DNA from: Paraspadella gotoi
Taxonomy: Eukaryota; Animalia; Chaetognatha
DNA length: 64,000 bases
Direction of reading: 5' to 3'
Assembly (NCBI GenBank): GCA_051294375.1
Contig: JBJCIZ010000282.1
Coordinates: forward strand, 562,809 to 626,808
How positions within the stretch are numbered: the stretch's first letter is position 1; each line of letters opens with the position of its first letter. The notes beneath the pieces are model-generated. The model saw only the letters and a list, made by a program, of their open reading frames with translations, did no database searches and was not told the origin of the DNA. Shown here one piece after another: positions 21,295 through 58,908 of this stretch. Both the position numbers and the translations under genes were made by a program.

Positions 21295-22176
21295 TCAACT
21301 CACAAAGCTCCGTCCGTCTAGAGACTTTTGAAAGTTGAGGCAAAAAACTTTTACCAAAAAGCAAAAAAATGTTAGGGACAAACTATGAATAATATAAAAT
21401 ATCAGAGAAAGATAATCTATATTATTCTTTCCTACTCTAATTGTCGTCTCTTCTCCTAGGCTATCCAAAAAATCGACAAAACTAAATAAATACAAAAAAT
21501 GGGACAGGCAATGTTTCGCGATGTGTCCCGGTGAAAAACAGCGATAACACAAACGCTTATTGGAGACAATTTGCTTCTTTTTCTCGGCGGGGAGGTTACG
21601 GAAACGTAAGCAGGAAGTCGATGAATGGACTTCGCCGCAGAAAAGGCACGTGACAGTCTTTGGACGCGTCGAAACATTAGATGATGCAATTTGTTGAAAT
21701 CGCCTTCGTGGAGATTTTCGGTTTGGAGATGACGCTGGTGTAGGAAAAATATTTTCTCCATGTCCACCTTCAGTTGGTGGTTCAGAGATAGAGGTCGGCG
21801 GAAGAACGGGTGACGGAGTGGCGCGAGTCCGCTCCCGCTCCAGTTCTTTCGTTTGAGATAGCTCTTCCTTAAGCTGTAGAATTTCGCTTTCTTTAGAGCG
21901 TAATAAATCCGTTAAAATGGAGAGAGCACTTTCTTCAAATTTTTCTAGTTTTTTTTCTACTTTTTCTATTCGAGATTCGAGCATCTCGGAAATATCTTTA
22001 GCGATAGTTTTCGGCAGAAGATCGATGTCGCTTCCCAAGTTGATGAACTCCTCGATAATTTTTTGCTGGAAAATTCGGTCGGGAAGCGGAAACGTTCTCC
22101 ATTCTGTTCGGCCTATTCCGTAAAAGCACGAATCGTATTTTAAAGGCGTGATAGACGGATTAATTGAAGTCGCCAT
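21295..22176 (-). CDS. gag: BEL/Pao gag-like ORF of a non-autonomous/relic element
   Basis: Coiled-coil, then CLFCGEVHSSTSC and LCYRCFSPGHIAKHC knuckles with BEL spacing; no pol downstream. Confidence 0.75.
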   Translation of the reverse strand: MATSINPSITPLKYDSCFYGIGRTEWRTFPLPDRIFQQKIIEEFINLGSDIDLLPKTIAKDISEMLESRIEKVEKKLEKFEESALSILTDLLRSKESEILQLKEELSQTKELERERTRATPSPVLPPTSISEPPTEGGHGENIFPTPASSPNRKSPRRRFQQIASSNVSTRPKTVTCLFCGEVHSSTSCLRFRNLPAEKKKQIVSNKRLCYRCFSPGHIAKHCLSHFLYLFSFVDFLDSLGEETTIRVGKNNIDYLSLIFYIIHSLSLTFFCFLVKVFCLNFQKSLDGRSFVS

Positions 22177-23199
22177 AATGATTTTTTCGTTCGTAGTTTT
22201 TATTTTTGTTTGAGAACGCAGAAATCAACCGAGCGGTGATTGAGTTTTACTGTGAAATAACTTAGTATTTCACGCTCGCGATTGCTACCGTTCCAGCGTC
22301 GTCCGTCCCTTGTTAGTCTGACGTAAGTTTTTATGAATCTTTTTAACTGAATGTTTAGTAAATGATGAATGAAAAGTAGAGATGAGGGTTTAGAAACTTT
22401 ATTTTACTTTAAAATGTCCACAAAAATCCTGTAAAACTCAAGTTCAGGACGGGCGATGCTACTTTTAGTAAGGCAAAAAATGGAACTCAAAATTTCTATA
22501 GAGTCTCTTTAAATTACGACAAAAGAATGACAAATACCGACGAAATACTAACCAGTAAATCATTTGGCCGAACGCGTAAGGACAACTAAGGTACGGTCAA
22601 AATAAGACTTCGGCCGAGAGAGAAATTACTAAGGCGAGGCATAATATTTGACATTGACCTTGACTGATTTTCACCTTTTTCTCAAATCCTACAAAGAACC
22701 TGAAGACGAACTAGACCAACGCACAAAGTGTGACGACGTCAACTTCATACTAAAAAAACCAAAAAATATCAAATTTTCTAAAAAACGAACACAGTATTTT
22801 TAAAAAACAATATTTTTTAAAAAAATACTAAATTATTCTTATGGAAAAATTGGCCGTACCCCCCGCACGAACGGAGAGGAACGAACCTGTTCGTACAAAA
22901 AAGAAAAAATTTAGTCCCAAAAAAAACAAAGGGAGAACTACGTAGTTAATTTGTAATGCTTGTGGGAAACGGGGGAAAATCTCAAACTTCTCCCGAGCGT
23001 AAAGCCGTGAAGATCTGAGGAAAAAGGCATGATGGGAAATAACGCTTTTTCCGGAGATAATCGAAACCGTACGATCGATTAAAATTTGTGCTTAACCTAC
23101 CGAAAACCAAGCACACAAAATAACAATATTACCTAAAAAATAAATATTTATTTAAAACAAAAAATATTTAAAGAAAAAACGTGAGCACGATTCCATAAA

Positions 23200-26100
23200 T
23201 ACTCCTGTGTTCAGAGTTTAGTAGGGATTCTGAAATGACGATCTGGAATTGCTTGAGAAATGTTACACAATTGTCCCAAAAATATCTTTCAAACTTTGTT
23301 ATCTCCGTGCTTGGGGAAAAGCAGTCCACTAATTATGAATATTTCCGAAATTATGGACCTCTTTTTAGATTTATGAAGGGCTTTGAATAGAACATGCAGG
23401 CACGTTACCATGTCCGGATTATTGTTTTTGTGATGCAAAATTATTAAACAAGTTTTATTCGTGCTAATTTTTTGGTAAATTTCTCTAAAGCACAGAGATT
23501 CTTGGAAAGGTTTTTTAAAAAAGCTGATATCATCCTGTCTGATGTTAAGCATGTATTGACCGCTGTCTTCTTGTTCCATTTTAAATTGATCAATATTTAA
23601 AAACAAACGCCCTATGAAAATGTACCAGATTTATATTATTGAGACAGGAAAGGCGTAACAATTTTAATCGAGAACGAGTAAAAAATATATGCAAAATGGT
23701 TATATCGATAGTGGAGAAAAAAAAGACACTCGAAAAATAAACTCGACATCTATAAAGATCTAACATTTCGATTTGGCTTGTCCTTTTGTTTATGGAAAAA
23801 AAAATTCAAGGTTTATCGATATTTAATATATCAAATTTTAGAAATAAAAATTAACATTGTGTATATATACCCCGTAAGTCATACAAATAAGGAAAATAGC
23901 GACAATGGACTAGATAATATAAAAACCCCATAAGTCATACAAATAAGGAAAATATCGACCATGGACTAGATAATAAAAAAATAAAAACGGCTGATAAAAA
24001 GGCATAGACATGGGCTAATCGTGTAATAAAGTCAAAGACGACAAAGCTGACGAGATACTGGGGTTCTTCGGATATAAAATGAAATCAAAAGTGAGTCTCT
24101 TCGCCTCGGAATNNNNNNNNNNTTTCGAAAATATGTGCGGCATGCATTTTCCTAAAGTGTCTAATAAAAGTACCGTCTTCTAAGTCGGAGTCAAATGCGA
24201 CAATGGTGTCTTTGCAGTGGTTGTGGTTGCAAATGCAAAGCGCTGAATTCTTGCTATCATTCTCACGCTTTTACCATTTATCTGTGAACCTAATGCGGGG
24301 ATAAGTTTTTTTGCCATGAGACAAGTGTTTGCAAGGTGAATTCCTAGGTTATGGACCTTCATCTTAGTTGTAATCCTAAGGCACAATAATTATATCCTTT
24401 TTAGCAGTTGCATGGCCGACGTCGGATTCTCTAGATCATCAAACGCCGAAACCAAATTGGCTACAGTTTTGTATTTTTTTTCCCTTTTATGCTAGGTTTG
24501 GCCGAATCCTCTATCGCTGTAGTGGGAATCCAACTTGCCACAACACCCGCGAGGGCTTCTACCCAAAGTACCCCATCAAATACTGTCGCGAAAACCGAGT
24601 TAGCCTGGTCATCAGTCGACAAATTAACTTGTTGTAATTGCGAATCTATTACGACGTCCACGTGGGCCTCGACTGGAAGTGCGCCGTCGAATACTTTCGC
24701 AAAAACCGGGTTCGCCGCCTGATTCGTCGACGAATTGACTAGTTGTAATTGCGAATCTGTTAAGTGAAATATAAACAAAATTTAATGCAAACATTTAATA
24801 ATAAAAAAATATTTATTTTAAAAATAAAGTTTAGAATCAACGTTTTGTGGCTTGGCTTGCCCTTGCTTGCTCATTTGTTTAAAGTGCCTCTTTCGGGATC
24901 TCATTTGCATATAAGGCCTGGTCTGTGAAATGAGACAGAATATTGAAAATTAGTTGTAATTTATTTTCAGTTCCCGAATATATTTTTATTTTTTATTTTT
25001 AATTTAAAAAAAATACATATAGTTTTTGGTTTATACCATTCCTCAAAAATAAACAAGATGGCATTTAATCCAATACAGTATTTTTATATGTTTTGAAGTG
25101 TGAACGAAAATGTATTAAAATATTTTTTTTTGTATTGTGAAAAATGGAATAACAACGATTTCATATACATTACAAAAAAAAAACAACAAAGAAAACAAAA
25201 AAAAAACATCCTAATGATAAATGAAATAGACACTGACCTGACAAACTCGCCGTTTGTAGGGCTTCTTTCATGATGTCATCTATTATTACTGCTTCGCGTG
25301 CATCTGGTTCAGCGGCGCCCGCGTCGTCCCAACTACTCATTATTTTTATCAACTGGTGATTTATAGGGACCAAGGCATTGTTTGTTTGATCAAAACCCGT
25401 GTTAGTACTTGGCCTCTCGTCGGGTGTAAAAAGCTGGACACTGGATGCCTGTGTTGTCAGACCTTCGACGTTTCCATGGTTATCACAGTCATTAATGAAC
25501 ACCGACAATGCTTCAACACTATCTTGTTCTTTGGGTGACAGTGACTTTTTTTTATTTGTCGGGGTCACCGTGACGCTGATTATGGGATCGCGTTGGCCAA
25601 ATTGGCCTGGTTTATCTGGAGTGGAAATGGTGACTCTATTAAGATTTAATGAAGGGGCGATTTCGGGAGGTGGGCTAAAGTTTAAAATTTCGCAATTCGG
25701 TTCTTTTTCTTGGCGCATAGGATCGCTTGCGTTTGCATCGTGGGATGTGGGATGGGGGGAGTGGTGGATAAACAATTAACTGTTTTTTTTTTTTTTGGAG
25801 AAGGCGTGACACGAAGGCAGTTGATTTGGTTGAAATTTTATTTGGAGGAGCGTTTTCGCGAAAAAATAGTTACTCTCTTCCACTTGTTCTGGCGACGAAA
25901 ATGCAATGGGGTTTTCTGGTAGCAACTCGTGTCGTGGGGCATTTGACAAAAAGATCCCGTTTCACCGAGGCTGTGATGGTACGTTTCTTGCTCGTTCTCT
26001 TTTTCGTTGGGTTTCTTCGCGCCTGGATTCCTTGTTTTTTCTTGTCGCTTCGAGTGACGTTGATGGCGAATCTTCGTCGTGGAATCCTTGGAACGGCCTG

Positions 26101-26268
26101 GGTTGGAACGGTTGACAGTTTCTCTCTCGTTCAATTTAATTGGTTAACGTTTAAGTTGCAAATATTTGGACTCTCGTCGTCTGCATTCAATAGAGTCTTC
26201 AATCCAAACAAAAAGTCACAATTTCGTACATAACTATTGTGATTGTCGCAATATCGGTTATTGTTCAC
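23200..26268 (-). pseudogene. 3' part of a multi-exon gene with a BED/C2H2-like zinc finger, interrupted by the LTR insertion
   Basis: Exon-like ORFs at 23289-23606, 24461-24760, 25230-25775 and 25838-26268. Own translation at ~24125-24250 gives CICNHNHCKDTIVAFDSDLEDGTFIRHFRKMH. Confidence 0.5.
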
Positions 26269-26719
26269 TGAAGAGAAAACGAGACCCGACGGAGAGCCCA
26301 GATCTGATCCATTCGACCGATTGACCGATCGACCGGACATGACCGGACTCTTTCTCCACTTTTCTCTCCTCCTCTCTCTTCTCTCTCTCTCTCTCCAAAC
26401 TTTACTTGGACCGACCAACAAGACAGAAGATTCACTGGATCACTTAGACTCAACTATTTCTTACAAAGTTTTACCAGTTTTTACTGAAGATTCTTCTCGA
26501 TTTTTTGATTTTCCTACGATTTATTGATTCATCTCGATTTGATCTCGATTTTCGATTTCTTCGTTTTCTACATTTTATTACATTTATTTACATTTATTCC
26601 CGCATTTTTTCCTTCGACATTTTGAGCTTCAGACAGAAACGTTTTGGGATTCTTTTCGTCAGATAAAGTTGCGACCAACATCTCACCTCAAGAGGCGTAG
26701 AGAGCCAAGCTTCTCTACA
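26269..26719 (+). repeat. 5' LTR of outer BEL/Pao element
   Basis: TG...CA; aligns with 30591-31049 plus 41127-41142. Confidence 0.8.
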
Positions 26720-27861
26720 GTAAGAAAGTATACATCGCTTCGGAAAGGTGAGTTGGTTTTGTGATTGTTTTTGGATTGAACTAAATTTGTTTTCCAAGCT
26801 TGACAACGGAACCCTTTGAACCGGAAACATCAATCCAAAAGGTGAGTCTGATCGATGATTGATTGATTGATTGATTGATTAATTGGCTAATTGACCGATT
26901 GATTTTATTGATGATTTATTGATTCGATTAGCTGATTTGTATAAATGAACCGATTGATTATTCAATGATTTATGATTGATTAATTGTCCTTTTGTTTGCT
27001 TTAGTGCCGTCAGTCTTACATTTGAAAATTACTTAGGCAAGATATTTCAAATTCACATATTTTTTAACGAAAAATTTGTGATTCAAATTTTGTCTCAAGG
27101 AAATTTTAATTTTACGAATTAAATTCCTGTCTAAGTGACTTTGCAATTTGTTTTACTGTGTGGATTGATTATTCAATTTAAACTTGCTCTCTCTTTAATT
27201 GAAATTTTATTTTTATTTTTTTATATCGAAAATGATGTCCTTTGCTGATCTCGAGGAGAGATACGCGCGCATCAATATGGATGATTTCCACCTAAAGCTA
27301 AGCGACGCCATNNNNNNNNNNNNNNNNNNNNNNNNNTCTACAGTAAGAAAATATCATCGCTTCGAAAGGTGAGTTGTTTTGTGATTGTTTTTGGATTGAA
27401 CTAAATTTGTTTTCCAAGCTTGACAACGGAACCCTTTGAACCGGAAACATCAATCCAAAAGGTGAGTCTGATCGATGATTGATTGATTAGATTGATGATT
27501 AGATTGGCTAATCGACCGATTGATTTTTATTGATGATTGATTTATTGATTCGATTAGCTGATTTGTATAAATGAACCGATTGATTATTCAATGATTTATG
27601 ATTGATTATTGTCTTTTGTTTGCTTTAGTGCCGTCAGTCTTACATTTGAAAATTACTTAGGCAAGATATTTTCAAATTCACATATTTTTTAACGAAAAAT
27701 TTTGTGATTCAAATTTTGTCTCAAGGAAAATTTTAATTTTACGAATTAAATTTCCTGTCTAAGTGACTTTGCAATTGTTTTACTTTGTGGATTGATTGAT
27801 TCGAATTTAAACTTGCTCTCTCTTTAATTGAAATTTATTTTTATTTTTTTTATATCGAAAA

Positions 27862-29595
27862 ATGATGTCCTTTGCTGATCTCGAGGAGAGTACGCGCGCA
27901 TCAATATGGATGATTTCACACCTGAAGGGCTAAGCGACGCCATTGGCTCCCTCTGCCGAATCATTGAACGATACGAACAAGCTGGAACCCCAGAGGCCAT
28001 TGCCATTCCTGAAGAAATGGAGATAATGGTCAATCAAAAGGTCGGCCAAATTCAAATGATGCAGGAAGGTTATCCCAAAGGATCCCTCCAGCGCAAGATG
28101 CTTGATGAGAGCGTCAACATGGCGCACATCACCGTGCGTCGACGCCGCGATGTACCACCTCCCGAGAAAAATGACGCAAATGATGAGCAAGTGGATGATG
28201 CTGAGACGGCACCTAAGCAAACGCATGATGCTACTAAGGAAGCTGAGCCGTTAATTGATGGATATTTTGACGCCATTATTGAAATTCAACCGAATGATGT
28301 TTCTGAAGACGAAGATTCCGGCCCTGAATATGAGATACAAGGCCCATCCAGGACAAGAGAGATGTCGTGGGACGATCAAACGTTCCGCAATTTCAAACGA
28401 GAGCAACAAGAACTTACTCTCATCAAAGAAGAAAAGAAAAAACAAGAAGAACGATACAACCAAGAGATTGAAAGAAGGAAAGCGGAAATAGAAAAGGAAA
28501 TTCTACAGATGATTGACATCAAGAAGAAGGCCATGAAGAACATCGACGAAGAGATTGAGAGAAAAGCTCAATTATACAATGAAGCCTGCACCGTATTTGG
28601 AACAAAAGCAACTACTAGCACCATCAAAAAGGAGCGCCGGATTTCCTCTTCAGAGAATGATTTGAGAAATGAAGTGAATGAATTGAAAAGAATGATTAGG
28701 AATTTGCAAGGTCGTCTATCATGTGCAGAAACGACCTTCAACGAGACAAGATCCACCCAAGACAGAGCCATCACTGAAATACAAGATTACTGCATCAATC
28801 ATGAAGTAAAAATAAAGAAACAGGAAAAGAAGATTTGCCAATTGGAAAGATCAGTCAAGGAACTTACCAAACAACTGGAAAGAGAAAGGAACATAAGAAT
28901 ACATTTTGGAGGTACTACAAATGAATCTGCTCCAATCAATCCAACTGCTGCTCCAACCACTGCTGCCGCACCTCCTTCGGCTCCAACACCAACTACAGCA
29001 GTACCTCCTTTAGATGAATCCAATATGGGATTATGGATCAAGCAACAGAAGAAGAAAAAGATCACCTACGAAAAAGGGGCCTACGAGAAGCAAAAGAAAA
29101 AGGTTACCATGGATAACGCCGCCTTCGACGTCAACGAAGCCATCCAGAACGTCAACGGCGAGGGGTAAAATGATGGTCAAGTCTTCAAGGATCACTCAAG
29201 GATCACCACCAGCATCTTCTCGTGCATCTCGAAAGGTGAATGTTGAAGAGACGAATGTTGTTTTGAATCATATTAGCGATATAATTGATAGATGTTGTCC
29301 CTGTTGTAATGAATGGCATTGCCTAGAAACCTGTCCAACATTTAAGAGACTTACAAAGGATGAAAAGGTTGATGTAATGAAAAGAAATGGTTTGTGCTTT
29401 AGATGTTTAGAAAAAAACCACATATCAAAACAATGCACTCAACCTAGAGAGGCTTGTATGGTCTGCGATGGGCCTCATCATACTATTATGCATGCTACGG
29501 GTTTCGCTCCAGCTTTTACCCCGAGGCAGAGCCCAACGTCGTATGTTTCGGAGATGGAGTTTCCGATGATCTTCGTCTTGTTCCTTGTTCGATGA
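27862..29595 (+). CDS. gag: Internally deleted BEL/Pao gag (frameshifted) with three Cys/His knuckles
   Basis: CPCCNEWHCLETC, CFRCLEKNHISKQC and CMVCDGPHHTIMH; shares SWD....NF.RE.QEL and EKGAY.KQKKKVT with the inner gag. Confidence 0.8.
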
Positions 29596-30590
29596 CATCT
29601 TGGTTCCTGAAGAGCTGTTTGAGGGGTTGAGGAAAGATATTCATACATTCATTCATTCGTTCATCGATTCATTCATTCATGTGTCCGAACATTCATCCTT
29701 TCATTCCTTCATTTGTTCGTTCGTTCATTCGTTCATTTGTTCGTTCATTTATTTGGGTTATCTTGGTAAGATAACCGGCCAAAATTTTTTGCGGGAATTT
29801 TGATTGTTTCAAACGTTTATTCGTTATCTTGTATTATTATTAGGTTTCATTGTCTCATGTCTAATGGTTATTTTCTTTTTACATTTCTGTTTATTTTTCT
29901 AGAGTTTGTTGTATCTCCTGTTTTCTATCTGTTATTTGTCTTGTTTTCTTTGTCTCGTTGTTTCTTAATTTTCATGCTTTTATAATATCATTGGATTGTA
30001 TCTATTTTGTTATTGTCAGAAGTTATTCTTTTTCTTTATACTGCTTTATGCAAATAACATTGTTTCATTCGGTCTATAATGTTTCATTTTTTCATCGATT
30101 TCTTTTTTGTTTCATTCATGCTCATTCACATTCATTGGCGGGATTGCGGGTTTTATGAGGGTAAAAAAAAATTACAAAATTATTATACAAAATTCTTAAT
30201 TTTAATTATAGTTTATAAGTTTATATTAAAAAGTTAATTTCAGTTCTAATTTCTATTTCTTCATCATAGGGAAGGTAGAACAGGCTTTTTCTCTCTCGAG
30301 ATCACTGAAACGTACCTTGGGGATTCTAGCAGGGTTATCATCTTTTGCGTGCGTTGCGCATCTTTTCCCGACAAGTCCGCTAGCTTGCCGGTCACCCGCT
30401 TAGATCATTCGTCATGCTTAATGCTCCAGAATGGACGCCTCCTCTTCTGAGCCAAGATTTACATCCAAGGTTTCCTCTCCTGGCTGGGGACCGAGCATCT
30501 CCTCCTCGTCTTCAATTGTCTGGTAGTCCTCGTCATTTTCGTCGTCGGTAGGGTCGTCGATTCGATCATTCCAGTTTCTAATTTTTTGTT

Positions 30591-31049
30591 CGAGACCGAC
30601 GGAGATGGCCAGATCTGACCTATTCGACCGATCGACCGGACAGGGACTGACCTGACTCTTTCTCCACTCTTTCTCTCCCTCTCTCTCTTTCTCTCTCTCT
30701 CTCTAAACTTTACTTGGACGAGCTCAAACAAGACTAAGACAGATTCACTGGATCACATTTTGGAGACTTTCAACTATTTTCTTACAAAGTTTTACCACGT
30801 TTTTACTGAAGATTCTTCTACGATTTCATTTGATTTTCCTACGATTTATTGATTCTTCTCGATTTGATCTCGATTTTATACGGATTTCGTCTCGTTTTAC
30901 CTACATTTTATTACATTTATTTACTTTGATTCCGCATTTTTTCCTTCCGACATTTTCGAGCTTCAGTTCATAAAACGTTTGGGATTCTTTTCGTCAGAAA
31001 AGTTGCGACTAAGTGGACCATCCTCACCTCAAGAGGCGTAGAGAGCTAA
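30591..31049 (+). repeat. 3' LTR of outer element (split by inner insertion; remainder 41127-41142)
   Basis: Aligns to 26280-26708. Confidence 0.8.
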
Positions 31050-31375
31050 TGAAGAAACGTTCGGCCTATTCTAGTCATATTTAGACATTGACCCGACATT
31101 GACCTTATTATCGACCGACGACCCGACTCTTTTCACTCTCTCTCTCTCTCTCTCTCTTTATCTCTCTGCACTTTTCTTGGTTAGCGACTTTTTACTGGAT
31201 TATATTCGATTCTTTTTCGCGACTTCAAGGAGACCTCAACTATTTTTTCACAAAATTCTGTATACTTATTTGGACGTTTTGCTTCGATATATTAGAGGAC
31301 CGTCAAAAGCAGTTAATTCTCTCCGCGAAAGACTCTTTGGACGTCGACAAGGCTCGAGAAGAATATTACTCGACA
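31050..31375 (+). repeat. 5' LTR of inner element (about 100 bp shorter than 3' LTR)
   Basis: Near-identical to 40711-41126 except that ~40930-41035 is missing. Confidence 0.92.
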
Positions 31376-31386
31376 GTGAAAAAATA
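31376..31386 (+). promoter_or_regulatory. Non-tRNA primer-binding site, complementary to LTR 31241-31251 (putative self-priming)
   Basis: GTGAAAAAATA is the exact reverse complement of TATTTTTTCAC; no TGG. Confidence 0.7.
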
Positions 31387-31745
31387 ACGAAACGCTTTGT
31401 CTACGTAATCACGGCCGACGATTTCGGAAATCTATCTTTAACTTCACGTCGCGAAAAAGGTGAATCTATCTTATTATTAGAATTAAATTGACAATAAGTA
31501 AACCTTATTGATTAGTTAATTTTGAGATAAGGCAAATCAATTTATCGATTTTTAGTGCCAATTGATTTATTCGGACTATTGATTGGTCATTGATTTGAAG
31601 ATTCTTTATAATCAAATTAATCTTATCAAATTAATTATTTGACTGATTGATTAGGTGATTATTCCTGTTTATCATTGATTGATTGCTCATTTGAAAGTTG
31701 AATTTCTTGTTACTAATTTAAATTTTTACAATTCAATTTCATACG

Positions 31746-34084
31746 ATGGCGATCTCGATCGATAACCTGAGGGCCATGGAGACGTCGATCACCATGAATC
31801 CGGCGTCTATCGAGGGCCTCAAGGACACTACTGTCGCTTTGTCTAATTTGATTGAGCGATTCCGCGCCTTGGGAACTGAGGAAGCCCATCTCGAAGCCGA
31901 TCGTCTAGTCAACATCCTCAAAGACAAGCGTCAAAGGGCTCTAATCATAAGAGAAGTGACCTCCAATGAAGATGACGCCAGTCAACTCGACGAAACTCTC
32001 GCCATCGCCGATCAAGCGATAGGAAGGAGCGAGCAGAGAAAGAAGAGGATGGAAGAAAACGAGGACGAGAGGGCGACCCCGGAACAAGGAAAAGTTGCTG
32101 AAACAACTCCAAAGGAACTTTTCGTCGATGCTTCGTCCAACGGAGCTGATTCTATCGAAGAAACCTCGAGCGAATCAGATTATGAAACATCGGAAGAATC
32201 AGGACTGGATTATGACCAATCGACTTGGAAAACAAAAGACGGCTCCTGGGACGAAAGATCGTATGGAAATTTCCGAAGAGAAAAACAGGAGTTGGATGAG
32301 ATGAAGAAGGAAGAACGGCGAAGAGCTGAAGTCCATGACACCTGTATTAATCAACGGAAAAGTGACTATGAAAACGAGTTGAAGAAAATGCAAGAAACGA
32401 AGGACAACAGCATTGAAAATCATAGGAAAAGGATTGAAGAAAAAAGTCGAAACGTTTAGGAAGAGGCTTCTTTCTTTGCTAAGATCAAAAACGAATCCGC
32501 CAGACTTCCGAGCAACCCTCCATCGAGTTCGACGCCGAAGAAACAAAAATCAAAGATCAATTTGTCTTCTCTCCACTCGAAACTTCACGACCTCGAGACA
32601 AATACAAACAACGCTTTTATTTCAATCGCAACGGTTTTTGCGGAGCAAAAAGCTGAGAGAGAAAAGGAGAGAAAAGACATGGAGACAATGATTTTGAACC
32701 TCAAGAGGGATAACAACATTAGGGAAGACATCATGAAGGAACAGGAAAAAAGGATTAAAAGGCTTGAGGACAAGGTTAAAATGTTGACTCTAGAAGCAAA
32801 TAAACCACAAAACAAAGCTGAAAAGAGAGTAAGCTTTGGAAGAACTCAGATACAGCCACAATCCTTCTCCAGTACTTTAATTGAGTCTTCCACCCAAAAA
32901 CACAGTCGACTCAGCCACCAGCCCAGGCATCGCAAATTCCCCACCAATACCACAACTTGTTCAACCAAGCCAGACAACAGAAAACGCTTTCTTACATGCC
33001 TATATTGAACAAAACAGGAAAATTGCCATGCTTAGGACAGTTGAGCAAGGTCGACCGAAACAATTATACAATGGTGAGAACAAAAACCATTCATTTGAGC
33101 TCCACATTAAGGCTTTTGAGACGACCATGAGGCAAGCTGAAGCCACTGATGAGGTTAAAGTACAAGAACTAAATCATTGGTTCAACGGCTTAGCACACAT
33201 GAAGTTGACCAAGTATATTCTCAATAATGAGATACCAGCAAGTCAAGCCATTGGAGAAGCCATCGAAACTCTGAAAAAAGAATTTGGGAAAAAGGACGCC
33301 AACACCCATGATTTGTTGAAGGATGTCCTCAACAAACCCAAGGTTCAACCAGGCAACAAGACAGAGCTGGACAAGCTGACAACGGAGCTCGAAAATGTTA
33401 AAGCAATGGCGGACGAGATAAAAAAAGGTGATGATTTGGACAAGGATACAATCATTAACGAAATCCTTGAAGCTAGATGCGATCATCTTAAACTGGAGTT
33501 CGCCAGGAAGGATGCCTCTCATCAGATGGATAAAGGGAGAAAACTCAACTTCGACGAATTCATCAAATTCTTGAAGACCAAAATCCTTCTGGAGAAAGGC
33601 GCTTATGCTAAGCAGAAGAAAAAGGTCACGGTGGACGACCACAAAAGCAAGGACAACTTCGTTGAGCATAGCCTTGCTAGATGGATGCGAACCTTGCATG
33701 TTTTGCGATCAATGGCATCATGAGGCGGGATGTAATACCTTAAAACTGGCTTCAACAGAAAAGAAAAAAGAAATCTTAAGAAACAAAGGATTATGCTTCA
33801 AATGTTTGAAAACAAGTCATATGGCAAAGCAATGCAAATCCGATGTCAATTGTTTACTTTGCGACCAAAGCCACGACACGATGGTACATCATCTCAACCA
33901 AAGGCAAACTTATGCAGCAGCAGAATCAAAATCACTAAGCCCTCCCCATGGAGCAAGACGACCTCCGACCCCAAATAGAAACTCAATTGAACAAAATTCA
34001 ACACCACTTAGAATGAAGCCCTTGAGAAATTCACCTACAAGATCAGCTTCACCATCAGTGAGTGGAGGAACCATCTCCTCCTGA
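31746..34084 (+). CDS. gag: BEL/Pao gag (split by several frameshifts)
   Basis: Coiled-coil, capsid-like helical region (32990-33590) and knuckles CMFCDQWHHEAGC, CFKCLKTSHMAKQC, CLLCDQSHDTMVH. Confidence 0.88.
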
Positions 34085-37000
34085 CTAGCTGTAGCTTCAG
34101 CACCAGGAGAATCATCTTACCGGCCTGTTGTCCCTGTTGTTGTTGAACATAATGGACGAAGGAAAAAGACTTACGCCATGATCGATTCTGGTTGTAACCG
34201 GTGCGTGATCAGAGAGTCCGTTATAGACGAACTAAAGATTGCTACAACTGAGACAACCATGAAGATCAGATCATACGATTCCATCACGACCGGCATCAAA
34301 AAGATAGCTGATGTGAATTTGGAAAACTTGGAGAATGATTTTACAATTAGCATGAAGAAATGTTTGGTTGGAGAATTATTGACTAGTGAAGACGACTTCC
34401 CCCCGACAAATGCTGAGATTGAAGGAATGCTTCACATGGAGGGTGTCACTTTTCCAGAACTTGAACACAAAGAAGTTGAAGTCCTCATCCCGGCACAGCT
34501 GGCTTACACCTGGATTGGGGGAGAAGTTCGAAGGGGTCAAGAAGGTCAACCAATTGCATTGATGACTGATTTTGGCTGGACTTTGATTGGTCCACGAAGT
34601 GGAGTGAATGACGAATCTATTGATTGCGCGAGAATGACCGCGGAATTCCTGGAAGAAGATGAGAATATGATCAGAGAAGATCTCAAACGGATCTTCAACC
34701 AAGATTTCGAGTCAACCACGAGTGCAAAACTTCAGCCGTCACTCAACGATGAATATGCTATTCACCAGCTAGAATCAACCATACGATTCGACCCAGACAT
34801 AGGGCACTATGTCGTCGGCCTTCCATGGAAGGAAGGAAGAAAAAAGCCAGCAGAAATTCTCAACTGCAGAGATTCGAGCACCATGGCTCTCAACAGACTT
34901 AATTCGTTGATGAAGAAACTCAACAAGGATCCTGAAATGAGAGAAAAGGTTTGGGAAGAAATCCAAAAGGAAGTTGACGAAGGACATGTTCAAAAGGTCA
35001 ACCAGGAAAATGTTCCAAATGGAATCCCCAAGTGGGTTCTCCCTCTCCATGTTGTTCTCAGGAAGGATAAGAATAAAGTAAGAGTCTGTCATGATGCCCG
35101 AGCTTCAGTCAAAGGAAAATGCCTCAATGACGAGCTACTGACTGGACCAGATTTGATGAACAGCCTTATTGGAATCTTACTTCGTTTCCGACAAGAAAAG
35201 GTTGCCTTGAATGGAGACATCAAAATGTTCTTCCATCAAGTCTATGTGGATCCAGACGATGTCCACGTCTTCCACTATTGGTTCTTTGAAGATAAGGAGT
35301 GCACAAAACTAGCCCTCTTTGAACTCAAAGTTCATATCTTTGGAGCAACGTCTTCTCCCGTCGCAGCAAACTTCACTCTTCACACCCATGCCAAGTCACT
35401 GAAGGGTCAGTTTCCTGAGGAGATTATACAAGCCATCATCAAGTCTTTCTACGTTGATGACTTCATCACCTCAGTACCAGACGCAGAAACAGCAAGAAAG
35501 ATCAAGAAGGCGTTGACAGAAGCAATGGCTAAAGGCGGATTTGAGCTGGGCAAGTGGAAGTGCTCAGACCCGAATGTGCTGGAGGACCATGAGAAAGGGG
35601 AAGATTCCTTTTCTCTAGAGCAGAGAGACCCGAGCCAACCAGGACCGACAGTTGTAGCTGACAAGATCCTTGGAGTCTCCTGGGACAGTAAAATCGACTG
35701 TTTCAGATTCAAGATCAACAAGGAAAAGCTGGAGAAGCCCTGCAAGACAAGAAGACAGCTTCTCTCACAACTGGCAAGTCTCTACGATCCTCTTGGCTTG
35801 ATTTCTCCTTTTGCTTTAAAGGGAAAAGCAATCTTTCAAAAGGCAACAGCCTTAGATTTGGAGTGGGATGACGTCTTACCTGATGAAATCCTTAAGGAGA
35901 TTGAAAAATGGAGGGAGCAACTACCAGAACTTGAGAAGATCTCCATCCCGAGATGGGTAGCCACACCAGCAACCAGCAAAGCAGCACCAGAACTACACAT
36001 CTTCAGTGATGCCTCAAATGAAGGTTATGGCATTGCAGTCTACCGACGGGCATGCCCAGACGACGGGGGCGATCCTCATGTTGCCTTCCTCTTCTCAAAG
36101 GCAAAGGTCACTCCCCTTGACAGCATCAGGACAGGACACCACAATTGCATTCCAAAACTCGAACTCACAGCTGCAAGATTGGCTGCTGAGATCCGGCAGA
36201 TGATCATTGAAGAATGTCCATCTGAAAAATACTCCAAGATCGTCATGTGGACAGACAGTGAAACAGTTTTGAAGCAAATCAACGACCGTGAAAAACGTTT
36301 TGCAGTCTTCTTCAAGAACAGATTGTCAAGAATCCATCAACTGACGAAACCAGAAGATTGGAGATATGTTCCAACTAAAGAAAATCCAGCAGATGATTGC
36401 AGCCGCGGTTTGAACATCAATGATGGAAAATGGGAAAGGTTTCACCATGGCCCATACTTCTTACGCCAATCAGAAGAATTCTGGCCAAAGAACACCGTCA
36501 CCATGAATCCTCTACCATATGAAACAAAGGTTAATGCAATCAATGCAAAAACCTACCAATCAGAAGATGCAACCGTGACCAATCACTGGGCAATCAGGCT
36601 CGCAAGAAGAAAAAGCCATTATCATCAAAAGCTAAGACTAATCGCAAATTTTGAAAAAGCTGTGAAAACTATTTTCAGAAAAGATTTTCCAGAATCAAAG
36701 GAAAAATTTAAAACTCTCAAATCCCAAGAAATCGAATCTGCTGAAGGAGTCCTGGCCAAGGCTTTACAAAATCTTCACTTTGAGAAAGAAATGAACGAAT
36801 TAAAGAAGAAAGATGTATGTGATCCCGCCGATAAAAAAGAACTGAATATGAAACATTCGACTTTGAAAAGGTTAAATCCCTTTTTAGATGAGAATGGTGT
36901 GATGAGAGTGGGAGGAAGGTTAGAAAATTCACAACTCCACCATCACGCAAAACATCCAATTATCCTACCAAAAGATGATTCCATCACTCATGACTTGATT

Positions 37001-38104
37001 AGATCTATACATGTCGGTGAGATCCATGCACCAACCAATCAGGTCATTACAAATCTCAGAAAGAAGTATTTTATACCCTGCGTCAAACAACAAGTCAAGA
37101 AGGTCATTTCTAAATGCCTCAAGTGCCAAAGAAATCTGAAGGCGCCAGCGCAACAGAAGATGGCGCCACTTCCGGAAGAACGCCTAACGCCAGGCGCCCC
37201 TTTTGAAAACACTGGTGTTGACATGTTCGGTCCCTACAAAATCAAAATAGCAGGCCGAGCTGTCCACAAAAGATGGGTGGCACTCTTCACTTGTTTGAAA
37301 GTTAGAGCAGTTCATCTTGAGATTTTGGATGATATTTCAAGCTCCTCATTCATCAACGCAATGACAAGATTCAATTCTAGAAGACCGGGTTCAAAAAAGT
37401 TTTTTTCAGATAATGGAACAAACTTTCGAAAAGCTGACCTAGAGTTAAAAAACGCCGTACAAGAATGGCAAAATGAAGAAACAAGCAACAAACTGCTTGA
37501 ATACGGTATTGAATGGGATTTTGGCCCGCCTAATGCCCCACACTGGGGTGGTGTGTGGGAAAGACTCGTACAATCAACAAAAAGACATCTAGACTCTGTT
37601 CTAAAGAAAGAAAATCTGCAACTAGAAACGTTTTCAACATTTTTGGTGGCGGTAGAAGGGGTGATGAATCGACGACCAATCACTCAATCAAGCGATGACC
37701 CCAGAGATTTGGATGCGCTATCTCCAGCTGATATTCTTTACCCTGGAATCTACAACGGTTCTAGACCTGTGATAGTACCGCCAGAATCGTTATCAGGAGA
37801 TGCCTTGAGATCTGAATGGAAAAAGGCAAGACATCTTATTGACGAATTCTGGAAAAGATGGTCAGAAGAGTATATAACCACTTTACAAGTCAGAGAAAAG
37901 TGGAACAAAACAGAAAAGAATATTAACATAGGTCAACTCGTCTTAATCGTCGATGAAAATCTCTCAAGAGATGATTGGAAATTAGGTCGAGTTGAAAACA
38001 TCACTGAAAAAAGTGGTTATGTTAGAAGAGTGATAATCAAAACATCAACTGGAAAATTCCTTGAAAGAGATAGAACCGGCGTAGTCATTCTAGAACTTGA
38101 TTAA
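34085..38104 (+). CDS. pol: BEL/Pao pol: aspartic protease, RT, RNase H, integrase (intact frame)
   Basis: AMIDSG; CLNDELLTGPDL, DIKMFFHQV, FGATSSP, FYVDD; LYDPLG, HIFSDAS, IPKLEL, WTDS, NPAD; H..H/CLKC, GVDMFGP, SDNGTNF, PHWGGVWERLV, FWKRWSEEY. Confidence 0.97.
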   Translation, partial: LAVASAPGESSYRPVVPVVVEHNGRRKKTYAMIDSGCNRCVIRESVIDELKIATTETTMKIRSYDSITTGIKKIADVNLENLENDFTISMKKCLVGELLTSEDDFPPTNAEIEGMLHMEGVTFPELEHKEVEVLIPAQLAYTWIGGEVRRGQEGQPIALMTDFGWTLIGPRSGVNDESIDCARMTAEFLEEDENMIREDLKRIFNQDFESTTSAKLQPSLNDEYAIHQLESTIRFDPDIGHYVVGLPWKEGRKKPAEILNCRDSSTMALNRLNSLMKKLNKDPEMREKVWEEIQKEVDEGHVQKVNQENVPNGIPKWVLPLHVVLRKDKNKVRVCHDARASVKGKCLNDELLTGPDLMNSLIGILLRFRQEKVALNGDIKMFFHQVYVDPDDVHVFHYWFFEDKECTKLALFELKVHIFGATSSPVAANFTLHTHAKSLKGQFPEEIIQAIIKSFYVDDFITSVPDAETARKIKKALTEAMAKGGFELGKWKCSDPNVLEDHEKGEDSFSLEQRDPSQPGPTVVADKILGVSWDSKIDCFRFKINKEKLEKPCKTRRQLLSQLASLYDPLGLISPFALKGKAIFQKATALDLEWDDVLPDEILKEIEKWREQLPELEKISIPRWVATPATSKAAPELHIFSDASNEGYGIAVYRRACPDDGGDPHVAFLFSKAKVTPLDSIRTGHHNCIPKLELTAARLAAEIRQMIIEECPSEKYSKIVMWTDSETVLKQINDREKRFAVFFKNRLSRIHQLTKPEDWRYVPTKENPADDCSRGLNINDGKWERFHHGPYFLRQSEEFWPKNTVTMNPLPYETKVNAINAKTYQSEDATVTNHWAIRLARRKSHYHQKLRLIANFEKAVKTIFRKDFPESKEKFKTLKSQEIESAEGVLAKALQNLHFEKEMNELKKKDVCDPADKKELNMKHSTLKRLNPFLDENGVMRVGGRLENSQLHHHAKHPIILPKDDSITHDLIRSIHVGEIHAPTNQVITNLRKKYFIPCVKQQVKKVISKCLKCQRNLKAPAQQKMAPLPEERLTPGAPFENTGVDMFGPYKIKIAGRAVHKRWVALFTCLKVRAVHLEILDDISSSSFINAMTRFNSRRPGSKKFFSDNGTNFRKADLELKNAVQEWQNEETSNKLLEYGIEWDFGPPNAPHWGGVWERLVQSTKRHLDSVLKKENLQLETFSTFLVAVEGVMNRRPITQSSDDPRDLDALSPADILYPGIYNGSRPVIVPPESLSGDALRSEWKKARHLIDEFWKRWSEEYITTLQVREKWNKTEKNINIGQLVLIVDENLSRDDWKLGRVENITEKSGYVRRVIIKTSTGKFLERDRTGVVILELD

Positions 38105-38479
38105 TCGCTGATCTATTTAAAACAAAAGAAAATAAAAGAAAAGAAAATTTCGTGCATTTATATTCAATATCTGAATCTCACGTCGCGTAAGGACGATAAT
38201 GGCGACAACGATAATAAAAACATTTAAATTTAATATCCGAATCCAACATACGACGACGACGACAGTGACGACGATAATAGAGACGATAGATCCAGACCAA
38301 AGAAATTCGTCTTAAGTCCGATCTCTCTCTCGAAAAATTATTTTATTTATTTATTGGTATAGATAGAGCTGATATTGAATTTTTTATTATTCACTTTCTC
38401 CCTCTCAAAGCTTTTCAGTGACAAAGTTTTCTTGATTTAAAAAACTTTTTTTTGGTTTTCCAAAACAAACAAAAAAAAG

Positions 38480-39961
38480 ATGCAATTCGCCCAACAACCG
38501 GACCCCTTCCGCGGAGCCCGAAGAACTGTGGTACAGGACGGGGGCGGCATGGTCATTGGTGGCCTTAAAACCGTCATCTTTGAGCTTTTCTCGACGGCGA
38601 CAAAATCGGATAACGGGATTTTGTGGTTGGCACGTGCTTCAATGGTGGATGGGTCAAGGGTTTACCGTTTCCTCAAAGAAGAAACTATAGAGGGAGTGGC
38701 AGCCCTCTTCAGTCCTTGGCTGCAGGAAGAGTGGACGGTGTTTATCATCGACACCCCAGGAAAAACGGCCCGACTCGTCACCGAGTGGCTCCAATCACTC
38801 CACGGCCTGAAGCGAATTGCGCAAATTCCAAGGCAGATGTTCCGGTGGGTGGGACATGTTTACGAAATCGGCTTCAAGAGAGATTACGTCACGGAAGAGT
38901 TTCATCTCCGCGACCGCAACTCCATCGACCAGACGATTAAGGATCTTCCAGGAGTCGTCCAGCGAGCCGAAAAGGTCAAGGAAGAACGGTTTCGACCTCC
39001 ACAACAGCTGACGTCAACTCTACCACCCTCGGAAGGATGCTCCTTGGCCTTCGCGCCGACCAGTGCAAAGAGAAAGGCCCCCGTCAAACGTCAAATAACA
39101 TCGACGACGACCGCTCCTTTTTTAGCAGCTGGAGGCGCGAGGCCACAGGCATCAACATCACAACAAAAGATCAATCGTCAAGCGACACAGATGAGTGCCC
39201 GGGATCGCCCGGTTGGTAGCCGTCAGAAGACGGCAGTCACGCCGACTGAGGATCCTGAGACTCAACTGACAAAAAGCAAAAAGAGAAGATTGAAGATGTT
39301 TGAAAAACTCAGAACCTTAAAGGAAGAAAAAGCAACATCGGCGCAACAACATCAACGCCAAAGTCTTCCTTTTCAGGAAATTTTTCGACCACGCCAGCTC
39401 TTCAGCAAGAAGGTCGCGGAAGAACGACTGGAGAGGGCAAAGAAACTCTCCGGCCGTAGCCATCTTCGACCGGCCGAAGTAAATGGCATCCTCCAGGCTG
39501 ATGATGAGAAAAACAAAAACAAAAGGCTCCAGCGATTCGGCCAAAATCCATCAGGCGAACCATCGACCTCTTCCTCCTTCAAAAAAATCCGCTTCCCGGC
39601 TTTGGAAGAAAGCATCTCCATTCTGAGCGCGGATTACGAACCCGGTGCGACAACTCATTCCAACACCCCCAAGTTGTGGTCGGAACACGGCCCCCAAAAA
39701 AGTTGTCCATCTCCAGAACCACCAAAATGCAGAGACATTTGAGAAGATGTTGAGTCCTACAAAGAGATCTGTAACATGGGAGATGACGCTCCACAGGTGC
39801 CGAATCCGCCACGCGATTGGGCTGATCGCGTCGAAAATCCGAGTGACAACGATTACGAATCGAGGGATGACTTGGATGCACAGCAGAGCGACGAGATCCT
39901 CGAAATAAACGTCGAGGACAAATATAACTCTTTTATCTCAAAGGACGTTGAGGATCAATAA
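38480..39961 (+). CDS. Extra ORF3 of unknown function inside the BEL/Pao element (3' end frameshifted)
   Basis: 420-aa ORF plus acidic continuation 39776-39961, located between pol and the PPT; no signal peptide or TM helix. Confidence 0.7.
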
Positions 39962-40695
39962 CTCGGCTCCATCTAGGCATTCATCGGCAGTGACGAAGAG
40001 TAGCAGTCATGTCACAATCAAATCCCCAGGTGAGAAAATTCTTTTTATGACATCGATTTCTGCCCCCTATAAACGCGTTGCCCCGGCGCTGACGCGTAAA
40101 GATGTTCAATTGAATTTTCTTTACCTCTATATGATGAAGGATTTGAGATAGGACTTCTGATTTAAACTTATATTTAGGCCCAAAATTTGATTGTTTTATG
40201 ATTTGCTTGTTTAATCGAATTTTTATTTCTTTTTTACCCTACTCCATTTCCCGGGTTTAAATTAAAATAAATAATCGAGAGAAAATATATTAATAAACAA
40301 AACAAAAAATAATACTTCTATAAATTAATTATTAATCAATTAAGTTTATATCGAGATATTTATGAAACCAAGTTTAAACTATTTTAATCTAAATTTAATT
40401 CGAGTCTAATTTAAGGATAAGTAAATCACCACTACCAGTCCCTACTACCAGGCTTCAGGTCTTCGACGCCTGGAATCTCAGAACCGACGGGATGCAGGAT
40501 GCCCCCTTACAGTAATGCTGCTGGGTCGAGATTCCGCATCACCAATTGATTTCGACAAAAGAATAATCTCGGAAAAACAAACATGTGAAGAATTTTTTTT
40601 ATTATTAAGATATTTTTTTTTCTGAACATTGTTACATTAGTATCTGGGATTATAGAGGCCTCTCGTCTATTTCAACTAATGTCCTTTAGTTACAC

Positions 40696-40710
40696 GAAAG
40701 GAGACGGGGG
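40696..40710 (+). promoter_or_regulatory. Polypurine tract
   Basis: GAAAGGAGACGGGGG abutting the 3' LTR TG. Confidence 0.85.
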
Positions 40711-41126
40711 TGAAGAAACGTTCGGCCTATTCTAGTCATATTTAGACATTGACCCGACATTGACCTTATTATCGACCGACGACCCGACTCTTTTCACTCT
40801 CTCTCTCTCTCTCTCTGCACTTTTCTTGGTTAGCGACTTTTTACTGGATTATCATTCGATTCTTTTTCGCGACTTCAAGGAGACCTCAACTATTTTTTCA
40901 CAAAATTCTGTATACTATTTGGACGTTTGCTCGAATTTACATTGTTTACATCGATTTTTCTCCGCAAAAATAAACAATATTTTCACGGATTATTTTCGCG
41001 TTTGTTTACAATTCTTACGGCGAGAGATATTCAAATTCGATATATAGAGACCGTCAAAAGCAGTTAATTCTCTCCGCGAAAGACTCTTTGGACGTCGACA
41101 AGGCTCGAGAAGAATATTACTCGACA
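40711..41126 (+). repeat. 3' LTR of inner element
   Basis: TG...CA; matches the 5' LTR. Confidence 0.92.
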
Positions 41127-41142
41127 GCCAAGCTTCTCTACA

Positions 41143-41885
41143 TCAACTATCCTGAGACCAACCTTATTTCTTGCATTTTCGTAAGAGACGTCCTCATCAT
41201 TGGAGAAATTTTATTGTTTTATTGTTTTATTGTAGATTTCGCGAAATCGACGTAATCATTTTCTAGTTTAACCTTCTTTGTTTCTCTTTCGTTGCAAGCT
41301 TCGTCGGCCTTTCTCTTTTTAAGTAAAAACCTATCTTCGTTTTGTTTTTCTAAATGTTTCAATCGTCGTTCGTGTGACGTGTGACGACTTCGATGTCAAA
41401 TTCGTCAAGAGTTGTTTGTCCATTTGTCTAATTTTCTCTAAAAATTCCTCCTCTTTCTCCACTTCAGCCAGTTTTTTATCGCATTCTGAAATCAACCAAG
41501 ATGTTTCTAACGTTTCCGGAGAAGTTTCCTTTTTTAACGAATCGCGTTTTGTTTTCATAGACGCCAAGTCCGCTTCCGCCTGTCGAATTTTATCTGGCTG
41601 AGTGTTCAAAAAATCTAAGTCATTATCGGTTTTCCATTTTATGATATGATGGGCGTTGTTTGTTAAAGTTTCGTGGAGATTCGAATTTTCTTTTTGAAGC
41701 TTTGTGACGGCGTTGTAGAAAAAGCTGGCCATTTGAGTACTTTCTTCCGCCATCTGCACTTGCAAACAAAACAAAAATTGTTATTGTTGTTACCGTTGAT
41801 ATAAAAATATTTAAAAATTAAAAAAAAAAACTCAATTAAAAAAAAATGAAAACAAAGAAAAAAATAATATTCAAAGCGTCACCAG
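41143..41885 (-). pseudogene. 5' part (coiled-coil exon) of the gene interrupted by the LTR nest
   Basis: Acceptor GTGCAG|ATGGCG at ~41754 and coiled-coil ORF 41331-41753. Removing the insertion joins NARNKVGLRI to VNNNRYCDNHNSY in frame. Confidence 0.55.
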
Positions 41886-44547
41886 GTTATTTTCTGTTAG
41901 TTGCATTTCGTTATAAAATAAAATAAAAATCACTCGAAAATTTGTTTCTTGATTATCTGACTGGAAAGACGGAGAATATCTACTTAAAACGTTGCCTGAC
42001 ATTCCTTACATTTGACCAGAACTGGGGGTAGTGGGGTTAGGGTTAAAAGTTGGGATGGGTGAGAAGTTGAGATGGGTGAGAAGATGAGATGGGTGAGANN
42101 NNNNNNNNNNNNNNNNNNNNNNNACGCGGTCAAATGGGAAGACAGAGGGCGACAGATGAACCGAGACGGTCAGACCGTCTGACAGATATAGTCGAGATGC
42201 TATTGATAAGGAATGGTGGGTAAAACAGCGGTGCAGAAAAAAAGAGAAGAGAGAGAGTGAGAAGAGAGAGAGAAGAGAAGAGAGGGAGAGAGGAGGGGGG
42301 GAGGAGTAGGAGAGTGAGAGAGAGAGAGAGGGGAGAGGGCCTGGGAAAGCCGAGGAAAATGGATAGGGGGTTAATCATCATCATTTCTCCTCTCTTCCTC
42401 TCCCGGTGATGCTTTTAACGCGGTTATATTCGACTCATAGAAAGTTTTGGTAGGACTCGGATTCAATTGACCGCGGAGCAAGTCACGTGACAAGTTTGTT
42501 GAAATTGACCGTGAGCCGCCAAAAGGAATTCACAAATATGTCGAATTTAACGCCTCCTCTTTCTCTCTCCTCTTCTCTCTCTCTTTCTCTCTCTCTCTCT
42601 CCCATTAAAAAAAAGGAAAATTTGTCTATAACGACCTTTTATACTGACGCTAAGCTTTTCTGAGAATTTCCAAATTCTTAGATTTACCGATTGGTTAATC
42701 GGTTAGCTTAAGGCCTGGATGCATTTCAACAAGAATTGCATAAAGCTTTGTTTATTATTATGTCAAAGAAGTGTTTCCCTTTCACGTTTCAAAAAAAAAA
42801 CTCTATATTTGATTAAGGTCAGCTTCAAGAGGCAACTAAAATCGGGCAATTTTTTATCAGTAAACCTTAAAATTTATCAAACACGGTTAAAGCATTTTAA
42901 ACGCTAATTTTTTTATTTTTTTTAATTAACAGCACCTTACCTCAGTGTAATACTAAAACTAAAAACCAAGTCATTCCAATTATGTTTAGAATCAATTAAT
43001 GATTGGAAACATAAAACGTTTTATGTAGAGAGAGAGGCTGACGCTTAGTATAAGGATGTCTATATCATTTTATACAAAAAAGAATTCATTATAAAATTGT
43101 AAAAATTTTAAAGACATTTCATCCACTGGCATCTGAAGTGGGTCCACTTGATAACAACCCTCAATTGGTTGCCACAGATTCCACAGACGGACCAGCTCAG
43201 CTCTGCTTGACATTTAGTTTCTGTTCCCAGGTTTTTAAAACTTGGTTCAAAACAAGACTGAGGAAAAAAAATAAATAAACACTTTGCAGCATTCCTCCTT
43301 GTTTACTGAATGCTTTCCCAGCCACAGCCATTTGTTAATAAAAAAAATTGGACAAAATTTGATAAAACTTAAAGATTGGTAAAGCAATATTTAAACTTAG
43401 AATGAAATATAGTAGGGCTCGATCGTTCGGAAATCGGAAGTTTCCGAATCAAGTTCCCTTTATGATTTCACTTCTATTCAAACTGCAATAGTCAGAGCCA
43501 TAATAATAGTATCAATATGGGTAGATTCGAAAGCTTGGCGTCTGGGTAAAGCCAGACGAGGTTAGAGCGCGATGCGAAATTCCCATTTTTATCAATGCCC
43601 AAAAATGGATTTTAAATGAATGGTCCAGGCCGTTTTTTTCCCTTTTCCCAAAAAACCTGCTTGATCTTTTTTAAATGATAGAACAAATCATAACATATCA
43701 GGTACGGTTCTTGGATTAAGCTATTGCTTCTTCTACCACTAGATAAAAAAAAGAAAAGATTAAAAATTCTGCAATCTATTGCTTGATAAAGCATCAAATG
43801 AACTGGTTTTTTTAGTGTGAAAACTAGCATAGTCAAGCCTTCATTATTTTTTTGTTCTAAGACCATCGAAAAAACTGTATTGTTTTACTAATCTGTTTCA
43901 GGTAGAGCGCGGGGGTAAATTTAGGAAGAGTTTATATTTAAATTTAGAAGCAAATAGAAAAGGATATCAAGTTTTTGCACGCTAAAAGCTTTTTTAAGCG
44001 CGTTCCGGTCTGTATTGAAAAATGTGGTTGACGTAGGTTATCCAATGAGAGGACATCAATTAAAATATAAGCATTGATCATGCAGCGCGATCCGGGCACT
44101 GATAAACCGATATTTTTCAACATGGCTTTACCCGTTATTGTTTACGTTTTAAGAACGCGGTCTGTGTGAAACTTGATTTTCCCGTGAATTGGCGTTCGTA
44201 GGGCGTCGTTTGTCCCTTGTTAGTCTCTTTATCTCATCTCTTTGAAATACAGACAATGAAGAGTTAAATGTGAGTACAAAAAAGTTAAGTAATCTTAAAC
44301 AATAGAGAGAATGAGCTACTTTTGAAGATAAACAAAAAATTGGACGAATATAACAATCAGTGATTCGATGGATGATCCAAATATTGATCTTACTCAAATA
44401 CTGAATGGAATACAATGTGAATGCGATGTATTTGAATTGTGCGATGATCAATCACATTTGAATGATGTCTTCATTATGATGTATCAGATATTATATTCTG
44501 AACTTTGTCATCATTTTGTGCCAGATGCTAAGTCATTCAATGACTGA

Positions 44548-57403: not shown

Positions 57404-57412
57404 AAAGGGAAA

Positions 57413-58753: not shown

Positions 58754-58908
58754 AAGAAAGAAAAAAGGAAAAAAGTTCCAAGCGAAAAAAAGTTCCAAAC
58801 AAAAGAAAAAAAGTTCCAAACGAAAAAAAAGTTCCAAGCGAAAAAAACCGAGCGGACATTTTGTCTTTTCATTCGCCTCGATCGCTGCGCTGCGCTACGG
58901 ACCTCATC

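Follow-up and report, generated by a model that had tools for sequence, protein, structure and literature searches.

Complementarity between primer sites and LTRs points to self-priming in BEL/Pao retrotransposons of Paraspadella gotoi

Retrotransposons in the window

Here we describe a BEL/Pao retrotransposon (the inner element), a gag-only element into which it is inserted (the outer element) and a third element on the minus strand, all lying in a 64,000-nt stretch of the Paraspadella gotoi genome (hereafter the window; GCA_051294375.1, contig JBJCIZ010000282.1, positions 562,809–626,808 of the forward strand). The inner element is on the forward strand, within the 3′ LTR of the outer element and near its end. 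Its 5′ LTR (TG..CA; 31050–31375) lacks about 100 nt of the sequence of its 3′ LTR (40711–41126), and the long LTR form is present in short-read contigs. The LTR boundaries were set independently by the LTR pair and by a 5-bp target-site duplication with one mismatch (gctaa at 31045–31049 on the left, gccaa at 41127–41131 on the right), and a polypurine tract (40696–40710) adjoins the 3′ LTR. The gag region (31722–34084), which is in four pieces in the assembly, encodes BEL-type Cys-His boxes and terminates with TGA, after which comes CTAG in the pol frame. It is followed by a 1339-aa pol (34085–38104) with RVT_1, Peptidase_A17 (Pao), integrase zinc finger and DUF5641 domains. An extra 433-aa ORF (38441–39742), for which no family match was found in Pfam or Atlas, lies between pol and the 3′ LTR.

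Directly after the CA of the inner 5′ LTR stands GTGAAAAAATA (31376–31386) and no TGG. These 11 nt, the putative primer-binding site, are the exact complement of a predicted self-primer segment inside the LTR, TATTTTTTCAC (31241–31251), which recurs in the 3′ LTR at 40891–40901, with AATAAA 3′ of it at 40969. The initial annotation had reported this exact pairing, and we found its positions and letters to be right throughout.

The outer element, also on the forward strand, comprises a 5′ LTR (26269–26719), a gag in two pieces (27879–29595; 29% and 37% identical to inner gag pieces) and a 5′-truncated 3′ LTR (30591–31049, with its final bases at 41132–41142); the copy in the window has no pol. 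Its primer segment in the assembly (26455–26464) is one base short. In nearly all short-read contigs a C follows 26456 (depth 5134/5404 in contig X1, and all of the depth in X4, X7 and X9), so TACTTTCTTAC is the usual form of the outer LTR segment, and all of its 11 nt pair with the site that follows the LTR, GTAAGAAAGTA (26720–26730). The latter is the common form in the contigs, the deepest of which match it without substitutions. The 26720 copy, previously called the noisier one, is thus the representative form. By contrast, the variant on which that description relied, consisting of the 11-mer TATTTTCTTAC (30775–30785) and a second copy of the primer site (27343–27353), is known from the assembly alone and falls outside both contig-compared stretches. 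The second copy is preceded by an N gap and just 6 nt of LTR, and it belongs to a stretch (27337–27943) that repeats 26714–27311 at 95% across a 25-N gap and is probably an assembly overlap. Compensation between the inner and outer pairs, as proposed earlier, is borne out, with three compensated differences in the common outer pair instead of two. The contigs also contain a second outer subfamily (23 differences over 26691–26845) as well as other sequences that follow the outer LTR end.

The third element has a putative 5′ LTR at 22251–22747 on the minus strand (TGAAG..TTCACA). Its ends are provisional because no partner LTR was found within the 64-kb window. A predicted self-primer segment, TTGAGTTTTAC (22431–22441, minus strand), is exactly complementary to the primer-binding site GTAAAACTCAA (22240–22250, minus strand), which precedes a gag-like ORF (21295–22224, minus strand) with a zinc knuckle 41% identical to that of the inner element. 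Between the third 11-mer and that of the inner element there are five differences, all of them compensated. The three LTRs share a TGAAG start, and the three 11-mers are all preceded by AAC and end in AC, forming helices of exactly 11 bp.

Several other features lie in or near these elements. Splice-donor-like AAAG|GTGA motifs occur at 31460, 26748 and 27369, 26–84 nt past the primer-site start in the inner and outer elements, which suggests a leader intron 3′ of the primer site. Elsewhere in the window, an integrase (rve) is accompanied by ORFs that may resemble the packaging ATPase, capsid and protease genes of Polinton/Maverick elements (640–2368, 6612–7193 and 54109–59379), and satellite arrays built of an 18–20-bp unit make up two related blocks, some 3.5 kb from each other (44593–45677 and 48087–49185). 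No tRNA genes were found in the 64-kb window, and an Rfam search of 26000–42000 returned a single chance-level match.

Pairing between primer sites and LTRs

Complementarity of this kind is rare in shuffled sequence. An exact complement of the primer site occurred in 63/20000 dinucleotide-shuffled LTRs for the inner element, in 26/20000 for the outer element and in 7/10000 for the third. When the whole window was scanned on both strands (433 candidate GT sites after ACA), three matches of at least 10 nt were obtained: the inner element, the third element and one satellite site.

Relatives were retrieved by pol alignment, and the best 80 of 162 confirmed metagenome loci were used; searches of viral contigs and genome contigs yielded no relatives. 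Where LTR ends could be fixed by comparing 5′ and 3′ copies, non-TGG sites follow them. Direct complements of these sites are short in the relatives and start right after an AG acceptor; joining them to an upstream GT donor gives 11–14 perfect pairs. In most relatives, then, the complement appears to exist only across a predicted LTR intron, an arrangement not seen in the initial annotation. In L002, the nearest relative that has a leader, spliced pairing extends over 12 bp, with the site at offset 0 from the LTR end.

We then scanned 94 flanking regions of the 80 loci (237,057 bases) for sites that start with GT and have ACA within 5 nt, criteria that were set post hoc, the spliced L002 pairing having already been seen. 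The scan gave 24 matches in 23 loci, with most LTR ends resting on the ACA motif, many loci coming from the same families and several being copies of one. Twenty-two of the matches fall at a candidate LTR end (6 of them contiguous and 16 formed only when a GT..AG LTR intron is spliced out), compared with 3 on the reverse strand, none of them spliced, and 0–2 in each of ten local shuffles. Two long L010 matches were dropped as part of an unrelated 33-bp inverted repeat. Among nine elements with independently fixed LTR ends, six pair over 11–12 nt at offsets of 0–5 nt (null, 0–5 of 500 positions each). The other three are L010 (6 nt perfect), L035 (one mismatch) and L064, whose two LTR copies are mutated and together yield 11 nt. 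Imperfect pairings were also seen in L022 (one mismatch), L047 (a 9-bp core) and L077 (one G-U), and no pairing was found in L060 or L054.

Nineteen chosen elements, with 14 distinct primer-site 11-mers among them, all pair with their own LTR over 10–14 nt. Of the 342 cross pairings between these elements, 278 reach 5 nt or less and 32 reach at least 10 nt, the latter between identical or nearly identical sites. L042 and L048, members of one family that are close on the RT tree, differ by a single compensated pair. Covariation between primer site and LTR, put forward at the outset from two families, therefore extends well beyond them, to 19 elements and 14 sites. The helix stops exactly at the primer AC in 18 of the 19, and none of the 19 primer sites starts with TGG; no TGG or other primer site was seen after the LTR in any element examined. 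By eye, no link was evident between primer-site offset and polypurine-tract offset. In one family, CTTAC, which corresponds to a splice donor read on the opposite strand, stands in the flanks of L016 (7109), L019 (8015) and L017 (3485–3489), possibly a target preference, as judged from two to three sites only.

Folding was used to examine where the RNA might begin. The inner helix is weak (−9.0 kcal/mol), and its predicted probability depends on the modelled 5′ end: at the inner pairs of the helix it is 0.95–1.0 for an RNA that starts 0–20 nt before the 11-mer in the full-length LTR model, 0.56 for a start 20 nt before it in the shorter 5′ LTR model, and 0.02–0.06 when the RNA begins 50 nt upstream. 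These predictions fit a transcription start close to the inner 11-mer. Folding of the whole region was no better than that of shuffles (z 0.46). A second helix further upstream lacks significance in the two forward-strand elements (inner, p 0.48; outer, p 0.19); it is significant (p<0.05) in 4 of the 19 elements, in which the primer is thus probably longer than 11 nt. A start at the 11-mer, as originally expected, accordingly suits the three window elements and probably does not suit those relatives with a second upstream helix.

A self-priming model and its alternatives

The maintenance of pairing with different letters among relatives suggests that this group starts DNA copying with its own RNA. 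We consider it likely that the BEL/Pao elements of the window prime minus-strand synthesis in the manner of Tf1, and priming by an element-encoded RNA in one form or another is highly probable. The earlier proposal of self-priming is supported as regards pairing and covariation, from which the priming step itself is inferred. Transcription would start a few bases upstream of the LTR primer segment, and the 5′ part of the RNA would pair with the primer site, either in cis or from a co-packaged RNA. A cut just after the AC, probably made by the RNase H of the RT as in Tf1, would free a 3′ end to be extended into U5 as far as the cut, and upon strand transfer the 3′ LTR would serve as template for all sequence upstream of the cut.

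In relatives with an LTR intron, splicing would be needed to build the split primer, and the unspliced 3′ LTR copy would be unable to compete for the primer site. Under this scheme an intron located just upstream of the cut would survive, everything on that side being restored from the 3′ LTR; with tRNA priming, by contrast, an intron in R ought to be lost. One locus may record the loss of such an intron. The L032 LTR starts with TG after a flank of unrelated sequence. As far as the donor it shares 93% identity with each of the two L077 LTRs; it then continues with the L077 second exon, with 409 nt from GT (1583) to AG (1991) exactly missing, and the two loci are sisters on the RT tree. This would be the trace expected from reverse transcription of an RNA that had been spliced in its 3′ LTR. 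The splice-assembled primer would belong to the relatives and not to the three window elements, which are probably intron-less forms of the same system.

The position of the poly(A) signal fits a primer at the 5′ rather than the 3′ end of the RNA: in 13 of 17 relatives, and also in the inner 3′ LTR, the primer has the signal on its 3′ side. We disfavour priming by the natural 3′ end of the RNA, with the AC followed by AAA as poly(A) site, on account of this downstream signal and because such a model would purge the LTR intron.

The same signal, standing between primer and primer site in these 13 relatives, could give rise to short LTR RNAs, and hence to priming in trans. Such a primer would be a short LTR transcript bearing a cap, spliced in elements that have an intron, and either terminated at the LTR poly(A) signal or derived from solo LTRs; it would anneal to the site and be trimmed to the AC. 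Covariation is equally compatible with such a primer. Nevertheless, cis folding of the inner RNA is predicted with high probability for a start near the 11-mer, and the retention of an intron next to the cut point would be simpler to explain if the genomic RNA itself were cut; we therefore regard priming in trans as unlikely.

Covariation demonstrates pairing, not priming, and the helix might instead be a regulatory RNA structure (acting in poly(A) occlusion, packaging, dimerisation or translation control) in elements that use another primer. Its variable offset of 0 to 5 nt from the LTR end would be in keeping with such a role. The helix nonetheless sits at the primer-site position and ends sharply at the conserved AC/GT in all but one of the chosen elements, and the elements examined offer no alternative site after the LTR. 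A purely regulatory role is, in our judgement, improbable.

A host tRNA fragment might also serve as primer, with the LTR match being secondary. One common primer site resembles what we take to be the tRNA T-loop palindrome, a likeness that speaks for this explanation. Transcripts of RNA polymerase III cannot carry six consecutive U internally, and the primers of the inner element, L052, L056 and L080 would need just such a run. This requirement, together with the diversity of the sites, each of which tracks its own LTR, makes a tRNA-fragment primer very doubtful, even though the ICTV profile calls the family tRNA-primed (PMC8742986) and priming by half-tRNAs is known in copia elements (PMC6317226). 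Chance complementarity or an assembly artefact, conceivable given A/T-rich 11-mers and the noise, gaps and duplicated stretch of the assembly, is barely credible and already largely refuted by shuffle rates of 0.07–0.3% per element, by the short-read contigs that back the inner pair and the common outer pair, by the window scan, and by 22 matches in relatives against 0–3 in controls.

Placement among LTR retrotransposons and implications

The inner element has the PR-RT-RH-IN order, Pao peptidase A17 and DUF5641 of BEL/Pao (Belpaoviridae) pol proteins, together with the TG..CA LTRs, polypurine tract and short target duplication of this family. Among the named homologs, which are 31–38% identical, are schistosome, mollusc, fish, coral and insect proteins. 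A FastTree phylogeny of 127 RT-RH segments, each at least 380 aa long (528 columns, rooted at the midpoint), built without gypsy or named BEL/Tas/Suzu references, places the window element on its own long branch within a clade formed with L002–L006 and metagenome proteins (support 1.0, without reference elements). This clade is apart from a group with schistosome, mollusc, fish and coral proteins, and the pairing signature occurs in both groups.

The TGA-CTAG sequence at the gag end (34082–34088 in the window) recurs in the pol frame in four of four close-clade loci (L002, L004, L005 and L006); L008 reads TGA-CTAA, and the remaining 15 of the 20 loci checked are without the motif. We take it to resemble the leaky UGA-CUA readthrough context. 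With a stop codon separating gag from pol, the window element is unlike the Belpaoviridae of the ICTV profile, in which the gene layout is one continuous gene or two overlapping genes only (PMC8742986). It differs from them also in its primer site: according to the profile, this site is 18 nt long and complements the 3′ terminus of tRNA-Arg or tRNA-Gly (PMC8742986), and no such site, nor any TGG, follows the inner LTR. The tRNA-type site is likewise absent from the published Sinbad element of Schistosoma mansoni, so it describes some members and not the whole family. Sinbad and other Belpaoviridae share domain order and Cys-His boxes with the window element, and in the Sinbad sequence (PMC554778, supplement 1; by eye) a 386-bp LTR and four bases are followed by a site at 391–401 that pairs 11/11 with the join of 191–198 and 234–236 across a 35-nt GT..AG stretch, a spliced complement. 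The terms PBS, tRNA and priming do not occur in the main text of that paper (PMC554778).

The window elements are like the Tf1-type elements in having no tRNA site and a site after the 5′ LTR that complements their own LTR. The latter group, which comprises Tf1/Tf2 of S. pombe, Tj1, Tosmo1-3 and the Tf1/sushi and Tcn1 chromoviruses, belongs to Ty3/gypsy and requires a cut to free the primer, according to the accessible portions of two accounts (PMC10085805, PMC4600332). The window elements belong to another superfamily, as judged by Pao peptidase A17 and DUF5641, and the Tf1-type three-duplex pretzel is absent from their predicted lowest-energy folds. The RT and integrase of the inner element are not of the Ty3/gypsy chromovirus type, and its Pao-type pol thus sets it outside Tf1/sushi despite its probable Tf1-like priming; self-priming in BEL/Pao would likely be independent of Tf1. 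A primer across a predicted splice junction, as in most relatives of the window element, is not described for Tf1 in the same portions of those accounts. Tf1 has been shown to self-prime, and predictions of self-priming exist for Tf1/sushi, Tcn1 and copia TAR elements (PMC10085805, PMC4600332, PMC6317226, PMC3601003, PMC5006619). The Ty1/copia TAR elements (Houba, Osr-1), for which the prediction is based on LTR/primer-site complementarity as here, are plant copia elements, and no splice-built primer is described for them in the accessible part of that source (PMC6317226).

BEL/Pao surveys make little of priming: primer sites and tRNA are not mentioned in two of them (PMC3118150, PMC6238403; term search of the main texts) and only generically in a third (PMC8220671). 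Full-text searches of the openly readable literature turned up no report of BEL/Pao self-priming or of a splice-built primer, and self-priming thus appears to be undescribed for this superfamily.

Within BEL/Pao, Cer7 of C. elegans may encode its own tRNA-like primer RNA, in its internal region and not as an LTR fold-back. An element-encoded primer would thus be common to Cer7 and the window elements, with the LTR fold-back in the latter only; a literature search for the Cer7 primer RNA found no paper.

Taken together, we favour, with somewhat less assurance than self-priming in the window itself, a scenario in which a broad marine-animal branch of BEL/Pao, including Sinbad, gave up tRNA priming for a primer built by host splicing of an LTR intron. 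Splicing would give the RNA's 5′ end licence to act as primer and would bar the 3′ LTR copy from competition, and the window families would be intron-lost descendants that converged on a Tf1-like 11-nt primer. The reading makes sharp predictions, which name the junction, place the cut after the AC and give the sequence of the primer, and for which Sinbad of Schistosoma, with transcripts reported, is well suited. If it is true, self-priming would be present in all three LTR superfamilies, and spliceosomal splicing would create a replication primer. It would also account for the persistence of an intron inside an LTR and for annotation pipelines finding no primer site in these elements, and the replication mode stated for the family by the ICTV, priming by host tRNA, would need revision.
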